A stretch of 64,000 bases of DNA from a virus (taxonomy: Duplodnaviria > Caudoviricetes): IMG/VR virus record IMGVR_UViG_3300014204_000130, positions 44,146 to 108,145 of that record. One strand, given 5' to 3'. Under the pieces are notes generated by a model that searched no databases, was not told the origin of the DNA, and was given only the letters and a program-made list of their open reading frames with translations. Positions 2,770 to 36,596 of the stretch are shown piece after piece. How positions within the stretch are numbered: position 1 is the stretch's first letter; each line of letters opens with the position of its first letter. The position numbers were made by a program, and so were the translations under genes.

Positions 2770-3375
2770 ATGTCACTTTGTCCAAGATGTAAAGTAAATG
2801 AGAAACAAATATTTAAGACAGGTAAAGTCGGTGCATATTGTAGAGAATGCCAGAAACATTACCATGATAGGTATTATTATGGTGAAGGTGGTAAACCTGT
2901 GAAGATTCCGAAACCCCCGAAACTTCCAAGAATCCCGAAAACAATTTGTCCAAGATGTAAAGTAAATGAGAAACATAAATTTCCAAATTGCATGGCTGCT
3001 TATTGTTTGGTATGCGTCCGAGAAGTGGATAAGGAAACACATAAACGAAGAATGTTGGAAGATCCCGTCGAGATAAAACGAAAACATCACTTGGCCGTTC
3101 AAAGATATCAGAGGAAGACAGATCCTGAAAGATTTCGTCGATATAGAAAGATGGGTATGAAGGAAATAGACACTTCATTGACATTGGCATTCGTAATGGA
3201 TTGGTTTAATGGTGAATGTCAGGAATGCTTTAATATCTGTGAATTCGGAGGAGAGTATAAACCAACAATTGATTATATAGTTCCGTTGAAGTCTGGAGGA
3301 CAACATGTGAAGGAAAACGTAAGGCTGTTGTGTAGAAGTTGTATGCAAATAAAATGGAGAAATTCTATTTCATAA
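2770..3375 (+). CDS. HNH-fold protein with two Zn-ribbon repeats and a degenerate active site
   Basis: CPRCKVNEK occurs twice; C-terminal CQEC...TIDYIVPLKSGGQH..ENVRLLCRSCM matches the HNH/McrA pattern but has His->Tyr and Asn->Met. Confidence 0.75.
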   Translation: MSLCPRCKVNEKQIFKTGKVGAYCRECQKHYHDRYYYGEGGKPVKIPKPPKLPRIPKTICPRCKVNEKHKFPNCMAAYCLVCVREVDKETHKRRMLEDPVEIKRKHHLAVQRYQRKTDPERFRRYRKMGMKEIDTSLTLAFVMDWFNGECQECFNICEFGGEYKPTIDYIVPLKSGGQHVKENVRLLCRSCMQIKWRNSIS

Positions 3376-4156
3376 TATTTTTGGACAGTCTTTTAAAAGA
3401 CACCTACCCCTCTTGTCTGTATGGAAAGAGGGGTTTCTTTTTGTCCAACGTTGGAATTTGAGAGCCGAAGGCTTCCTGTTGAGATGGGGTTGTCTAAGAT
3501 TGGACAGTTATAAATTCGTTGCTTGTCTAAGATTGGACTCCTGTTGAGATGGGTAGAGAATTGGGAGGAAAAAGAATGGGTTACGGATGATATGGAAAAG
3601 TTGGTTATGCATCCATATACCACATGAAGTACTGCCGTACCCTCCGCATTTTCCGGAAATGCTCGCATTATTTTATTCCACCGTACAACCCGCATCAACA
3701 CACGTTCTCCACAGTCGTACATATAGCACCGTACTAGCTGTACCGTACTCTCATACCTTGCAAACGCTGATCAATACTCATTTTCCACGAATCAATGATA
3801 TGCACGCCGAAAGTACAAGTCGATATGGTTGGTGCATTATGCACGGCAATGAAAAGTGGAAAACTCGTAGGAATGGCTTAAAATGGAAAAAGGTAGAATT
3901 GCCTGGGAATGGTCGGAAAAAACTTGTCCAGCAAAAGACTGGGAAAAACTGATACTCCTGAGTATCAAAATTTTAAAATGCGGTTTTGTAACCAGTCCGT
4001 GAAATATTGCAGTCTTTTAAAAGATTTTTCGGAATGGCCATTCCTATTGTATTGGCGATTCAAAAATTCTCTCCTCTTCTCCATGGGGAAGTATAGAGTA
4101 GGGGGAAGGGTAAGATTCTATATTGAAAAAATAGTTATCGAGAATGAAGAAAACAT

Positions 4157-4185
4157 TTGACAAGTGCTAGCACTCGGAGTAACGT
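4157..4185 (+). promoter_or_regulatory. sigma70-type promoter heading the early region
   Basis: TTGACA-N17-TAACGT; the spacer contains the palindrome agtgctagcact. Confidence 0.65.
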
Positions 4186-4251
4186 ATTTCTTGTAAGTGC
4201 ATTTTAAAACTTACTCCCTTCTTGGAAGGGGATTGCCCAAAAATTTGAAAA

Positions 4252-4703
4252 GTGAATCGGCAAGAGTAGACGAAAGGCCAAAAATCTCTCCCCCGCCGGA
4301 AACGGCGAAAAACCTAGCTTCAGGGGAGGTAAAGTTTATCAGGATACAACGCCTTAGCATCCGTCTACTATCCAAAACGTGATTAAAGTGTCACGTGTCG
4401 GAACGGCGCAAGGATACGGCGATATCTCGAAAGTCTCCCGAAGTAGAAAATCAGAGATGAGTAGAATACCGTAAGCGTATTAAATGGCAAGAGGTAAGAT
4501 ACCCGGCCACCCGCAAGGGTAAAAGTGAACCGATATACAAGTGATATCACGGGCAATGGTATAACCTACCCTCTCCCCCTACTCTCTCGTGAGAATGTCG
4601 GAAGGACGAAAGTATACCAAAGTGAATGCGGATAGCTAGAAAAATGCGTGTTGTAGTAAGCTTGGTAACTGTTTTTCGTCATGCGATACCCTTACCGATT
4701 CAC
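4252..4703 (+). ncRNA. candidate ~450-nt structured non-coding RNA
   Basis: Closing stem gtgaatcggcaag/cttaccgattcac, nested stems (4265-4272/4362-4369; 4557-4563/4613-4619), several GNRA tetraloop hairpins, no credible ORF, directly downstream of a promoter. Confidence 0.55.
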
Positions 4704-4706
4704 AAC

Positions 4707-4718
4707 GTTCTTTGAAAA
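4707..4718 (+). promoter_or_regulatory. rrn-type boxA-like element
   Basis: GTTCTTTGAAAA, the boxA form seen in rRNA leaders/spacers of many bacteria, immediately before a long-range stem. Confidence 0.4.
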
Positions 4719-4802
4719 GTGCATCGGGAAAACCCCTTTCTACTCAGTAGTAAAAATCATTCCCGTTTCAGGGAATGATAAATTAATTTAAAAGGAGTCA
4801 AT

Positions 4803-5036
4803 ATGAAAAACAATATCATTCTCCCTGAAATTTTCGGCAAGCTTACTTCCGACAACGCCGTGGTTCAGAATACCAATGAGGCATACAAGCGCGGTATTGC
4901 CATGCAAAAAGCAGTAAAGGAAGCTGAAAAAACGGTAAAGTTGGCTAGCGATTCCTTTCAAGCCGAACTCATTGCGCGTGCTTCTGACTTACACGTGGTC
5001 ATTCTGACCATGAAAGCATCTACCATTACCAAGTAA
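4803..5036 (+). CDS. small hypothetical protein enclosed by a 20-bp inverted repeat
   Basis: Strong AAGGAG RBS; inverted repeat at 4713-4732 / 5060-5079. Confidence 0.7.
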   Translation: MKNNIILPEIFGKLTSDNAVVQNTNEAYKRGIAMQKAVKEAEKTVKLASDSFQAELIARASDLHVVILTMKASTITK

Positions 5037-5230
5037 GCACTTGTGACCTGACTTCCGGTTTTTCCCGATGCACTTTTCATCCCGGCTCATGTTGCTTGTA
5101 TGCGTTCGGCTTACTGGTTCTTCAGTTTGCGCGTGCTGCATGTTTTCATGAGCCGGTTGTCCTGTTCTCTTCTGTTTCTCGTATCGGATTTTTTTCCGGA
5201 CAACATTTTTTCCGAAAGGAGATTGCCAAA

Positions 5231-5629
5231 ATGAATACACTTGTAGAATTGAAAAAATCAATTCAGGCTTGCAAGGAAGTTATCTCACTTTGCAAGTCGA
5301 GTAATGGGGAATATTGTCTCTTGGCAATCTCTCCGAGAAAAACGGGATTTGCCCGGAGTATGTTTTTCCGGGCGATTCAAAACAATGTCCGTTCCATTCT
5401 ACCCAAAGGGGTATATGGAACATTCATGGAAGATGGGGAACATGTTACGGTGGAAGTATCGCCGGAACATGTTCCTTGTCTGGTAGAAAGAATGGAAAAG
5501 AAATACATTGTTTCCATTCTGTCTGATTCAAGGATTGACGAGAGACAATCCTTATCACCACGTGAAACACAGTGCAAGAAAACAAGACGAGTTACCGCTT
5601 GCACTTCCTCTACTCGGACAAATAAGTAG
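5231..5629 (+). CDS. hypothetical protein
   Basis: AAAGGAG RBS before ATG 5231 (MNTLVELKKS). Confidence 0.65.
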   Translation: MNTLVELKKSIQACKEVISLCKSSNGEYCLLAISPRKTGFARSMFFRAIQNNVRSILPKGVYGTFMEDGEHVTVEVSPEHVPCLVERMEKKYIVSILSDSRIDERQSLSPRETQCKKTRRVTACTSSTRTNK

Positions 5630-5686
5630 GGAGAAATTCCCTACCATGTTTTCCCGGTTTAAAAATTCATTCTCAAAATAGGTTTT

Positions 5687-5782
5687 TGTATCTTTTCCAG
5701 ATCTTTGGAGGGATACAAAAACCTTGTTGTCGTTCCCGGAATAATCTGTATCTTTTCCAGATCTTTGGAGGGATACAAAAAC
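5687..5782. repeat. two identical 36-nt hairpin-forming repeats separated by 24 nt (mini-array-like)
   Basis: tgtatcttttccagatctttggagggatacaaaaac at 5687-5722 and 5747-5782. Confidence 0.85.
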
Positions 5783-5805
5783 ATTGCATTTTGCAATGTC
5801 CACCA

Positions 5806-5960
5806 AAAGATGCACAACGGTTTATCATTTCCGTTGTCATCTTGCATCTTTCTTCAGTTAAAAATGATAAAGATCATTTGCAGGCCGTTTCAACGACGGT
5901 GACTGCAACGGCTTCAATGCCGTGAAATGATATGTATCCGGTTCGTTTCAGAACTGGAAA
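5806..5960 (+). ncRNA. candidate pseudoknotted structured RNA or leader upstream of cca
   Basis: Stems aaagatgca/tgcatcttt and caacgg/ccgttg; the 10-nt loop tttatcattt is complementary to aaatgataaa (5862-5871); further hairpins follow. Confidence 0.5.
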
Positions 5961-5981
5961 ATTCGTAAAGGAGGTGTCATC

Positions 5982-7385
5982 ATGACATCTCAAAACAACG
6001 TCGCCAACTTAATCGGAAGTCTTCCGGCTTCCGTAAAAAATATTGCGACCGCCGTTTCGAAAGTCGGCGGTCGATCGTTTCTGATCGGGGGAGCCGTTCG
6101 CGACTTCTTCCGGAACGGCTCCGACCCTAAAGATTTCGACCTTGAAATCCATGGGTTGCAACTGGAAACCCTGAAAGGGGTTCTCGACGGTCTTGGAATG
6201 GAAACCAAGACCGTCGGAGAATCCTTCGGGGTTCTCAAGGTTCGCGACGAGGAAGGGAACGACCTTGACATCTCCCTTCCTCGTCGAGACAACAAATGTG
6301 GCGTCGGCCACAAGGGGTTCACCGTCGAAGTGGACCCCAACATGACTATTCGGGAAGCTTGTTCCCGTAGGGATTTCACCATCAACACAATGATGGTGGA
6401 TATCCTCACAGGGTCTATCGAAGACCCATTCGGAGGATTGGAAGACCTCCAAAAGGGAATCCTTCACCATACCTCGGAGCAATTCTCCGAAGACCCATTA
6501 CGGGTTCTCCGGGGAATGCAATTCCTTTCCCGGATGGGATTCCGGGCTTCCCAGGAATTGGAGGAAACCTGTTCAAAATTGGTTTCCTCCTTCTCCGAAC
6601 TTCCCAAGGAAAGAGTTTGGGAAGAGTGGAAGAAGTGGGCTGCAAAAGCCCAATCTCCTTCGAAGGGATTGGAATTTCTCCGGAATTCCGGATGGGTTTC
6701 CAACTTTCCGGAGTTGGAGGCACTCATCGATCTCAAACAAGAACCCTCCCATCATCCCGAAGGGGATGTGTGGGAACACACGCTGCATACGGTCGATGCA
6801 GCGTGTAAGATTGCCGGGAGGGAAAATCTCCCGAGTGACCGGAAAGTTGCCCTTATGTTAGGGGCACTTTGCCACGATTTCGGTAAGGTAACAACCACCG
6901 AAGTTATCGATGGGGTTATCACATCCAGGAAACACAACGTAGCCGGGGAAGAACCAACCCGGTCATTCATGGCGCGGATAGGTGCGCCAAAAGACCTCAC
7001 CGAAGAGGTCGTCCATCTGGTCCGTGAACATATGATTCACGTCTTCGGTGAACTGACGGACAGCGTTGTTAAAAAGCTGTCCTCCCGGATCAACGGGAAA
7101 ACCACCGTAATAATGGTTTCACATGTGATCGAGGCTGATCACGGTGGCCGACCTCCATTCGCCGCCGTTCATCCTTGTCCCCAAATCCTGGAAATGGCAG
7201 CGAGATTGAATGTTCTCGCCGCACAACCGAAACCTTTCCTGACCGGACGACATCTCATCTCGCTCGGGTTCAAACCCGGTCAGGAAATGGGAAAGGTTCT
7301 CAAGGAGCTTTTCGACCTTCAACTGGAGGGAAAGATTGCCTCGGAGGAGGAGGCAATCACATTCGCGAAAACAACTCGGGATTAA
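5982..7385 (+). CDS. cca: CCA-adding tRNA nucleotidyltransferase with HD domain
   Basis: GGAVRD, DFDLE, RRDFTIN and EDPLRVLR motifs; HD domain HHPEGDVWEHT...LCHDFGK; AAGGAGGT RBS. Confidence 0.92.
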   Translation: MTSQNNVANLIGSLPASVKNIATAVSKVGGRSFLIGGAVRDFFRNGSDPKDFDLEIHGLQLETLKGVLDGLGMETKTVGESFGVLKVRDEEGNDLDISLPRRDNKCGVGHKGFTVEVDPNMTIREACSRRDFTINTMMVDILTGSIEDPFGGLEDLQKGILHHTSEQFSEDPLRVLRGMQFLSRMGFRASQELEETCSKLVSSFSELPKERVWEEWKKWAAKAQSPSKGLEFLRNSGWVSNFPELEALIDLKQEPSHHPEGDVWEHTLHTVDAACKIAGRENLPSDRKVALMLGALCHDFGKVTTTEVIDGVITSRKHNVAGEEPTRSFMARIGAPKDLTEEVVHLVREHMIHVFGELTDSVVKKLSSRINGKTTVIMVSHVIEADHGGRPPFAAVHPCPQILEMAARLNVLAAQPKPFLTGRHLISLGFKPGQEMGKVLKELFDLQLEGKIASEEEAITFAKTTRD

Positions 7386-10754: not shown

Positions 10755-11894
10755 ATGAGCATTCAACAAAAGTTTTCTGACAATGTGAAACAACATCGCG
10801 GTATTCTCAAACATCTTCTCATCGAACGGGAAGAGATCATAGACGCATTACATATCGCACTTCTTTCCCGAAAGAACGTATATCTCATCGGTCCCGGTGG
10901 TGAAGGCAAAACAAAAATTGCAAAAGACTTTTCCAAGTTGTGTTCCATGAAATTCTTTGATCAGCAATTCCATTCATTCACGAAGGTGGACGATTGGGAA
11001 GGAATCGTTGATCTTAATGAATTCAAACAAGGAAGACTCATTCGTAAAGTTGCCAATTTCGCTCCCGGTGCGGATATCCTTCTTGCCGATGAAATTGGAC
11101 GTGGTGGAGCTGTCCTATCTTGCATGTATCGATTGCTTAATGAAGGCACTTACATGGAAGATGGAGTAATGAAACAAGCTCCAGTTGAATTGGTATTCGC
11201 CGGTTCCAATTCCATGTTACCGACTGAGCATGATGCACTGTTCGATAGGTTTCCATTCTTCTTCGAATGCAAAAAGGTTTCCAATGAAAACTTATTGGAA
11301 ATCTTGATGGATGATGATAAAGAAGTCATCCTTCCAGAGAATGAAAAGATTACAAAGGTAATGGTGCATGAAGCACGATTGGAAATGTTGAAGGTAAAAC
11401 TTTCAAAAGACATTGCAATGATGATTGTGGATATCAATGCAAAATTGGAAGAAGAAGGTATCCACATCTCCACTCGACTCAATCGTTGGAGTCGAACCAT
11501 CCTCCAGTCTTCTGCATATTGCGAAGGAAGACAAGAAGTAATCGATGAAGATGTATGGGTTCTTCGCAACGTATACGCCAGAACACTCAAACAGAAACCC
11601 ATTGTCGCAAAGATATTGAGATCGATATGCAATCAGGAACTCGACTTGATGTTGCTCACCTTCGACCAGTTGGATGCGTATTTCAACAAATGGGAACAGA
11701 ATGCATGTCCTAGAATGTTGGATGGTGGTGATTGCGCAGAGAGCGCGAAGGAATTGCTGAAGGCGATTGAATCGGTAAAGCCGAAGGATATCAACAAGGC
11801 AGAACATTCAAGGCTTGTCCTGCAAGGGAAGGCCAAGGTTGCCGCGATCTCCGCATCGGCATTGGCGAAACGTCGGCAGGGCGTGAAGGAATAG
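10755..11894 (+). CDS. MoxR-family (RavA-like) AAA+ ATPase
   Basis: LIEREE, Walker A GPGGEGKT, Walker B LLADEI, LLNEG, ALFDRF. Confidence 0.88.
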   Translation: MSIQQKFSDNVKQHRGILKHLLIEREEIIDALHIALLSRKNVYLIGPGGEGKTKIAKDFSKLCSMKFFDQQFHSFTKVDDWEGIVDLNEFKQGRLIRKVANFAPGADILLADEIGRGGAVLSCMYRLLNEGTYMEDGVMKQAPVELVFAGSNSMLPTEHDALFDRFPFFFECKKVSNENLLEILMDDDKEVILPENEKITKVMVHEARLEMLKVKLSKDIAMMIVDINAKLEEEGIHISTRLNRWSRTILQSSAYCEGRQEVIDEDVWVLRNVYARTLKQKPIVAKILRSICNQELDLMLLTFDQLDAYFNKWEQNACPRMLDGGDCAESAKELLKAIESVKPKDINKAEHSRLVLQGKAKVAAISASALAKRRQGVKE

Positions 11895-36243: not shown

Positions 36244-36393
36244 TGTTAGACTCCTAATTGATTGTTTGAAGTAAGAAGATATGAACTGTTTCTTGATTAC
36301 GAAAGTTTGACTTCCAACCACCAATTGAACATTAAGTTAGTGAAGCAAAAAGCCCTCGTGGTGGGATAGACATCCATTCATATCTTCCAACAT

Positions 36394-36487
36394 TGGGAAG
36401 AGTGGGATTAGAACCCACGGGAATCCTTCTTTAAGGACTCTACGACACGTTACAACGTCGTGCAATAAACCACTCTGCCATCTTCCC
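36394..36487 (-). tRNA. type II (long variable arm) tRNA, Tyr(GTA)-like, with an 8-nt anticodon loop
   Basis: Acceptor GGGAAGA/TCTTCCC plus discriminator A; D-arm GCAGAGTGGTTTATTGC; anticodon arm CGACG-TTGTAACG-TGTCG; 8-bp variable stem; T-arm GTGGG-TTCTAAT-CCCAC; no encoded CCA. Confidence 0.75.
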
Positions 36488-36596
36488 ATGAGAGGTGTTG
36501 GTGTCCGATAAACAAACTCCACCGTTTATAAGACACCAACACCATAGACGTATATCCGGCCTAGATTTTCCAATCAGATATACGCCCGCGAACTCT

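Follow-up and report, generated by a model that had tools for sequence, protein, structure and literature searches.

The stretch from 4252 to 4703 is, as judged from its sequence, a real, non-coding element which is closed by a long-range stem and stands in a setting similar to that of a ribosomal RNA in its operon. The reading that we tentatively favour, and to which we would give somewhat less than an even chance, is that it forms the cargo of a non-coding RNA cassette excised by RNase III at the head of a boxA-controlled, rRNA-operon-like phage operon. The DNA analyzed, hereafter the window (64,000 nucleotides, to which all positions refer), covers the right-hand 64 kb of an IMG/VR virus record of 108,145 bp, from an uncultivated phage with an estimated completeness of 88%. 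Phage-like genes in the window include an HNH endonuclease (2770-3375) and a CCA-adding enzyme (5982-7385), and further phage-like genes are a family B DNA polymerase, helicases, a UvsX-like recombinase and a ligase. All genes neighboring 4252-4703 lie on the plus strand. The features on which the argument depends are the following:

4157..4185, plus strand: sigma-70-like promoter (-35 TTGACA at 4157-4162, 17-nt spacer, -10 TAACGT at 4180-4185)
4193-4198/4209-4214 and 4216-4221/4225-4230, plus strand: two small hairpins of the 5' leader, from fold and sequence scans
4240..4251, plus strand: degenerate boxA-like leader AAAAUUUGAAAAGUG..., in which UUUGAAAAGUG is kept and the GUUC of a full boxA is missing
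4252..4268, plus strand: 5' arm of the closing stem P1, or clamp (inverted repeat I7, 17 nt, 88%; pair probability 0.9-1.0)
4269..4686, plus strand: non-coding cargo, with a GAAA hairpin at 4287-4329, a hairpin at 4377-4396 and a multi-hairpin domain at 4451-4592 as its robust parts
4451-4592, plus strand: central domain of the cargo, with a GUAA hairpin at 4465-4481 and a GCAA hairpin at 4509-4520 in the predicted folds
4687..4703, plus strand: 3' arm of P1 (inverted repeat I7, predicted fold)
4705..4718, plus strand: rrn-type boxA ACGUUCUUUGAAAA, overlapping the 5' arm of the second clamp
4713..5079, plus strand: second clamped unit, a stem of 4713-4735 with 5057-5079 (inverted repeat I1, 22 of 23 pairs, 23 bp) around a 77-aa gene
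4803-5036, plus strand: 77-aa gene (RBS AAAGGAG, codon score 0.23)
5036..7060, plus strand: hyper-structured rest of the operon, comprising a 132-aa gene, hairpin repeats and most of the CCA-adding enzyme gene
5231-5629, plus strand: 132-aa gene (ATG at 5231, RBS AAAGGAG)

Non-coding status

Of all stretches in the genome that lack an ORF of at least 65 aa in the six frames, 4161-4802 is the longest, with 642 nt compared with 412 nt for the next. A codon-usage score derived from the 42 longest ORFs stays flat in every frame over ~3240-4800 and jumps at the 77-aa gene. The small ORFs inside the element have codon scores of ~0 and are not preceded by an RBS, which is in accordance with the original prediction that no ORF with an RBS is present there. 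No Pfam match was obtained for the element, its read-through translations included. A protein read under code 4, or with TAG as glutamine, was considered and rejected; no frame carries a coding signal. A frame of 194 aa opens if TGA is read as tryptophan, but the genome has 92 shadow frames of this kind, this one included, and its codon score is -0.02; TGA serves as a stop in nine of the 42 long ORFs of the training set. The GC content is indeed above the genome average, as had been predicted (45.7% in the element, 37.3% for the genome mean), and falls within the top 6.5% of windows. Transcription of the minus strand was rejected because minus-strand genes are absent nearby and GNRA loops are found on the plus strand only.

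A GC-rich (0.50-0.55) and ORF-poor stretch was also noticed at the contig end, at the start of the record (window -44144 to -42800; record 1-1350). Two windows sampled from it (genome positions 570 and 1172) fold with ordinary z values of -2.3 and -1.4, and it gave no match in Rfam.

The closing stem and its paralogue

The predicted terminal stem between 4252-4264 and 4691-4703 is present, with one mismatch (C4261/A4694), and the repeat finder extends it to 17 nt. Complementarity over 4252-4268 and 4687-4703 amounts to 15 of 17 positions, and in the predicted fold the pairing can be extended by 4269-4278 with 4671-4680. We estimate that a P1-like stem would be expected by chance ~0.014 times anywhere in 617 nt; on this estimate P1 is not a chance feature.

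In sequence, P1 is a paralogue of the stem round the 77-aa gene, its core GTGAATCGG corresponding to GTGCATCGG in the second stem. The 77-aa ORF itself has no relative in IMG/VR. Common to both stems is a 9-bp core, GTGMATCGG/CCGATKCAC, in which an A-T pair of P1 is changed to C-G in the second stem, a compensatory change; outside this core the arms of the two stems diverge in sequence yet still pair. The 5' arms of both open with one 20-nt word (90% identical). The corresponding direct repeat, D3, relates 4244-4263 to 4711-4730 at 90%, and in our own alignment 16 of 21 positions are identical to 4707-4727. The 3' part of the rrn-type leader word, AAAGTG[AC]A, has six plus-strand copies in the 108-kb genome, four of them within 4249-4723. 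A scan of IMG/VR with the clamp word returned 32 matches, all attributable to chance, and the word was not found in other phage contigs. One IMG/VR contig with a 22-nt match was rejected, as the match is antisense and lies inside an open frame of 1131 codons.

Promoter, boxA and the layout of an rRNA operon

The predicted promoter at 4157-4185 is plausible. Its extended -35 element, TTGACAA(A)(A)GTGCTA, is common to three plus-strand promoters, situated at -4445, -149 and 4157 of the window (39700, 43996 and 48302 of the genome). The -10 element TAACGT has only three of six matches, and the site does not appear in the list of a generic promoter scan. The spacer holds a perfect palindrome, AGTGCTAGCACT, which is possibly an operator. 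The original prediction had also called the RNA the first early transcript. It does head its own operon; similar promoters are nevertheless found upstream, and its early timing is presumptive.

The leader between the promoter and P1 would contain the two small hairpins and the degenerate boxA. The rrn leaders of B. subtilis likewise start with a small hairpin followed by boxA (PMC13753749). The sequence between the two clamped units, GUUCUUUGAAAA, taken with its flanks, agrees at 11 of 13 positions with the B. subtilis rrn boxA consensus AUGAUCUUUGAAA (PMC13753749). Positions 4708-4727, i.e. boxA and the start of the second clamp, are identical at all 20 positions to a leader sequence that precedes the 16S rRNA by ~200 nt in two Bauldia (alphaproteobacterial) MAGs, which marks this 20-mer as a bona fide rrn-type leader word. 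Since the word that follows boxA (AAGUGCAUCGG) is also found in the Bauldia 16S leaders, it is part of a widely used rrn leader and not an invention of the phage. When the combined pattern of boxA and clamp was searched in GTDB genomes, seven matches were obtained, two of which are true 16S leaders and none a homologue of the RNA.

The order of the parts is promoter, small hairpins, weak boxA, clamp containing the RNA, strong boxA, clamp containing a gene, and further genes. The paralogous stems, together with a true boxA after the RNA, indicate a layout that copies the rRNA operon, with the RNA in the position of 16S.

Proposed maturation of the RNA

According to the scheme that we favour, transcription would start at ~4192 from the 4157-4185 promoter. 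Past the small hairpins and the degenerate boxA, 4252-4268 (possibly to 4278) would pair with 4687-4703 (from 4671) into a duplex of ~17 to 27 bp that would correspond to the processing stalk of 16S rRNA. Host RNase III would most likely cut this stalk and free a plus-strand RNA of ~420-450 nt with GNRA-capped hairpins. No intrinsic terminator was found between the RNA and the next gene, so that release of the RNA would need processing. The full boxA at 4705-4718 would then load antitermination factors of the NusB/S10 type, and antitermination would carry RNA polymerase through the second clamp with the 77-aa gene and on through the structured message of the 132-aa protein and the CCA-adding enzyme. 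From the sequence we infer NusB/S10 loading and antitermination at boxA, as well as transcription, RNase III cleavage, stability of the freed RNA and any action in trans. An early decoy or scaffold role has been proposed for other large phage RNAs, and it would be a guess that the freed RNA is likewise an abundant, trans-acting structured RNA of this kind, made early.

In favor of an excised cassette we count the longest ORF-free gap, P1, the core shared by both stems, boxA, the plus-strand GNRA hairpins, the promoter family and the raised GC in an AT-rich genome. Against it we count the homologues not found, the ordinary fold z value, the good fold of the minus strand, the three nearly equal folds and the degenerate first boxA.

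Predicted folds and the possibility of a structured leader

The words proposed to form nested helices are all present as stated: agtagacg (4265-4272) with cgtctact (4362-4369), acgtga with tcacgt (4377-4396), aatac with gtatt (4465-4481) and tggtata (4557-4563) with tatacca (4613-4619). However, the minimum free energy (MFE) fold of the plus strand is not the nesting claimed but a rod, with 4252-4373 paired to 4630-4703. Relative to the MFE, the agtagacg/cgtctact helix costs just 4.4 kcal/mol, and with tggtata/tatacca added the cost is 15 kcal/mol. Within 6 kcal/mol there are three distinct folds, and all of them contain P1, the hairpins at 4287-4329 and 4377-4396, and the 4451-4592 domain; the predicted pairing of the rest of the cargo is ambiguous. 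As modeled, the fold is not uniquely defined. Among the GNRA-capped hairpins that had been listed, cgccg-GAAA-cggcg (4294-4307) and accc-GCAA-gggt (4509-4520) are real, but ac-GAAA-gt has only 2 bp. Counting those with at least four Watson-Crick pairs, two GNRA hairpins occur in 617 nt, compared with 0.29 per kb genome-wide, which is a mild excess; the minus strand has none here.

Folding z values are -5.6 for 615 nt and -4.3 for 470 nt around the element. In 55 random 470-nt windows of the genome the mean z was -1.6 (sd 1.7), and six of the 55 (11%) reached -4.3 or lower. The minus strand folds as well or slightly better, and 43 of ~141 pairs are common to the optimal folds of both strands. 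The description of the element as highly structured was therefore an overstatement, given the share of random windows that fold this stably, the equal folding of the minus strand and the three folds within 6 kcal/mol.

A sliding fold over the genome placed the outliers at 5184-7064 and not at 4252-4703. Positions 5036-5985 have a z of -9.5, and 6124-6593, inside the CCA-enzyme ORF, a z of -9.6 against dinucleotide shuffles and of -7.5 against shuffles of synonymous codons that keep the protein. The same part of the CCA gene in two homologues from other phages, the two that were tested, gave a z of ~-3. GC3 of the phage CCA gene is 0.57, versus 0.30 in its other genes. These values point to strong selection for hairpins or RNA structure across the whole early transcription unit, most extreme in the coding sequence, with the non-coding head as the least extreme part of the structured unit. 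As the downstream coding part is far more structured, the structure in 4252-4703 may belong to the whole transcript and not to a dedicated RNA, and the structured CCA gene (z = -9.6) may be a more testable lead than 4252-4703. In the same region, an ORF listed as 177 aa (TTG at 5096) more likely starts at the ATG at 5231, which has a ribosome-binding site (AAAGGAG) and gives the 132-aa gene; no family match was found for it. Two 40-nt hairpin repeats, 98% alike and 60 nt apart, are situated at 5687-5726 and 5747-5786, between the 132-aa gene and the CCA gene.

These results bear on the main rival explanation, which we consider possible but distinctly less probable than excision, namely that the 450 nt are the long 5' UTR of the operon and act in cis. 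Such a leader, folded and equipped with boxA, would block the loading of Rho and resist ribonucleases, P1 would act as an RNase III site like those of T7, trimming the leader or stabilising the message downstream, and the excised piece would have no function. It is known that boxA and Nus antitermination counter Rho on untranslated RNA (PMC13753749), and co-transcription with the genes, no terminator intervening, is what a leader would require. Selection for RNA structure over the whole unit from 4190 to 7060, strongest in the coding sequence, is in accordance with this explanation, as are the only moderate structure and the ill-defined fold of 4252-4703. On the other hand, a 420-nt cargo, forming the largest non-coding gap of a compact phage genome, would be costly for a leader, and the GC-rich GNRA hairpins suggest tertiary contacts. 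Moreover, the cargo is enclosed precisely by its clamp, just as the gene of the second unit is by its own, an arrangement that speaks for excision of the unit.

Possible decay, upstream repeats and possible control at the DNA level

Besides the arms of the two stems, extra half-motifs AAAGTGAA occur at 4522 and 4619 without a complementary partner. This would be expected of decayed clamp arms, and it is one of the observations that speak for evolutionary debris, i.e. for decayed copies of boxA plus clamp, or the decayed gene of the first clamp, being kept because the promoter and the clamps are needed. The degenerate first boxA, the poorly defined fold with a z within the range of the genome and the 800 nt upstream (3376-4156), which also lack coding signal, are compatible with the same explanation. 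However, a search for an internal tandem duplication, which was rejected as an origin of the element, detected none beyond the motif, no frame retains a residual coding signal and the read-through translations have no Pfam match. GC and GNRA hairpins are raised in the element, whereas the upstream non-coding DNA folds at a z of only -1.9. We regard debris as improbable.

The upstream stretch itself, 3376-4156, comprises ~780 nt without coding signal between the terminator of the HNH gene (~3404-3440) and the promoter. It contains CCTGTTGAGATGGG twice and TTGTCTAAGATTGGAC twice as direct repeats, and about five copies of CCGTAC. Its fold z of -1.9 equals the background, and it is possibly a control region or an origin.

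More improbable still is that the AAAGTG[AC]A words and the inverted repeats are protein-binding sites, such as operators or an origin, of one DNA-level control region covering the 1.4 kb of non-coding sequence from 3376 to 4802. A related word, AAGTGCTA, does lie beside the -35 element in three promoters, the two strands fold equally well, as DNA palindromes would, and other direct repeats are found just upstream. Yet true rrn leaders carry the motif as the 3' part of their boxA, a signal that acts in RNA, and GNRA loops are restricted to the sense strand. The stems are also long-range, their arms being 420 and 320 nt apart, and the second brackets a transcribed gene, so that pairing in RNA fits and a cruciform does not.

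Search for relatives and known RNA families

The searches for a homologue of 4252-4703 in phage, plasmid, IMG/VR, metagenome and GTDB sequences found none. Searches with blastn against GenBank phages and PLSDB plasmids gave no similarity. Around 100 IMG/VR loci anchored on the CCA enzyme, obtained from a single-protein search and a 13-sequence alignment, have no neighboring gene in common with the phage, and over them no match was obtained with nhmmer or with a covariance model of the 4448-4595 domain. A general link between phage CCA genes and large RNAs was rejected. The 291-aa ORF has eight weak partial relatives, at whose loci neither synteny nor the RNA was detected. For two 20-mers taken from the GNRA hairpins, IMG/VR contained no match. 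Three spaced AAAGTGAA words gave at least 120 matches in metagenomes, none related among the 120 loci checked, which indicates that the pattern is too common to be informative.

Rfam 15 gave no match at gathering score over the whole 108-kb genome, and only noise over 3900-5100 at E<=10 with permissive filters. The original prediction had found no hallmark motifs of tmRNA, RNase P or group II intron domain V, in agreement with the lack of a match among 4227 Rfam families, even at E<=10, and with ARAGORN, which finds no tmRNA. Models of group I and II introns, RNase P RNA, tmRNA, HEARO/omega RNA, 6S and known ribozymes are all among those without a match, and the Rfam scan proposed along with the original prediction thus assigns the element to no known family. 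Of the observations that were to refute the prediction, neither a match in Rfam nor homologues lacking conservation turned up. A reading as a divergent relative of a catalogued large RNA (ROOL, GOLLD, group I or II intron, RNase P, tmRNA, HEARO) has next to no probability: the element's size, phage setting, GNRA loops and tRNA-related neighbor gene do resemble ROOL and GOLLD, but with no gathering-score match in 108 kb, noise alone at the permissive threshold and no tRNA genes nearby, the sequence comparison effectively refutes it at the sensitivity of Infernal.

The phage that carries the element belongs, by sequence comparison, to an isolated lineage and is an orphan. Its DNA polymerase is ~25% identical to those of cultured phages and has no relative in IMG/VR. 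Its MoxR-like ATPase (10755-11894), encoded 6 kb downstream of the element, has only three relatives among 5.8 billion proteins (52, 49 and 38% identity), two of which come from Logan assemblies, where the only known relatives of the phage are found. Rfam detects no tRNA gene in the whole 108-kb genome. ARAGORN makes a single doubtful call, with a 4-base anticodon, at 36393-36488 on the minus strand, 32 kb from the element. A full-length CCA-adding enzyme is thus encoded by a phage without a recognisable tRNA gene in 108 kb.

The claim that the element is a large non-coding RNA of an unrecognised class can be retained in part. It is non-coding and located, on the transcribed strand, downstream of a plausible promoter, its stem exceeds chance and it is not in Rfam; a class, however, needs relatives, and none were found. 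What was found is a clamped element, and to read it as an ornate RNA of a new class goes beyond what has been shown. It is rather unlikely that the element is the first representative of a class of large phage RNAs not yet described, matured like 16S rRNA through boxA-modified transcription and excision from an RNase III stalk, and made early together with the CCA-adding enzyme by a phage that lacks tRNA genes. Should this be so, manipulation of RNA ends or of the tRNA pool could be envisaged, or a decoy against host defences. If the RNA is real, the phage has copied the production line of rRNA, antitermination signal and excision stalk included, to make its own large RNA, and has put this stalk to a second use around a protein gene. 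The clamp would then be a portable module, and a new route to abundant structured phage RNAs would exist beside that of the tRNA-linked ROOL and GOLLD. As the sequence is a single orphan, this significance is potential and not demonstrated.

Comparison with known systems

ROOL and GOLLD resemble the element as large phage non-coding RNAs of comparable size with hairpins, GNRA loops and a tRNA-related gene in the neighborhood; ROOL averages 581 nt (PMC5737381). Neither the ROOL (RF03087) nor the GOLLD (RF01998) covariance model matches here. [quoted passage not shown] Both were defined by covariation across many members, whereas the element described here is a single sequence. The tRNA island typical of ROOL is not present either, and since the phage has no recognisable tRNA, the comparison with both families fails on the tRNA neighborhood.

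The lambda-type nut sites have in common with the element a host boxA used for antitermination at the head of an early operon, which is predicted in the present case. In contrast to them, the phage has an rrn-type boxA that continues into a long-range stem and is not directly followed by a boxB-like hairpin that could bind N, and no gene resembling N was identified.

Phage transcripts and stable RNAs processed by RNase III include those with the early RNase III sites of T7, species 1 and 2 of T4 and the stable RNAs of T5. In these systems, as in the element, a standard duplex brackets the units of a polycistronic RNA, and here the core of the clamp is reused for different cargos. The present cargo is, however, several times longer than those stable RNAs and has no tRNA-like handles.

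In layout the element resembles the leader and 16S stalk of the bacterial rRNA operon. The phage differs from it in its cargo, a 420-nt orphan RNA without similarity to rRNA, in its degenerate first boxA and in its second stem, which encloses a protein gene; RNase III cleavage and the loading of Nus factors are, for the phage, predictions. Two traits of the rRNA arrangement, a long-range helix formed by the sequences flanking the RNA and a boxA word in the transcript, are nevertheless both found here, and the parts follow in the same order, including the second boxA and the second long-range stem.
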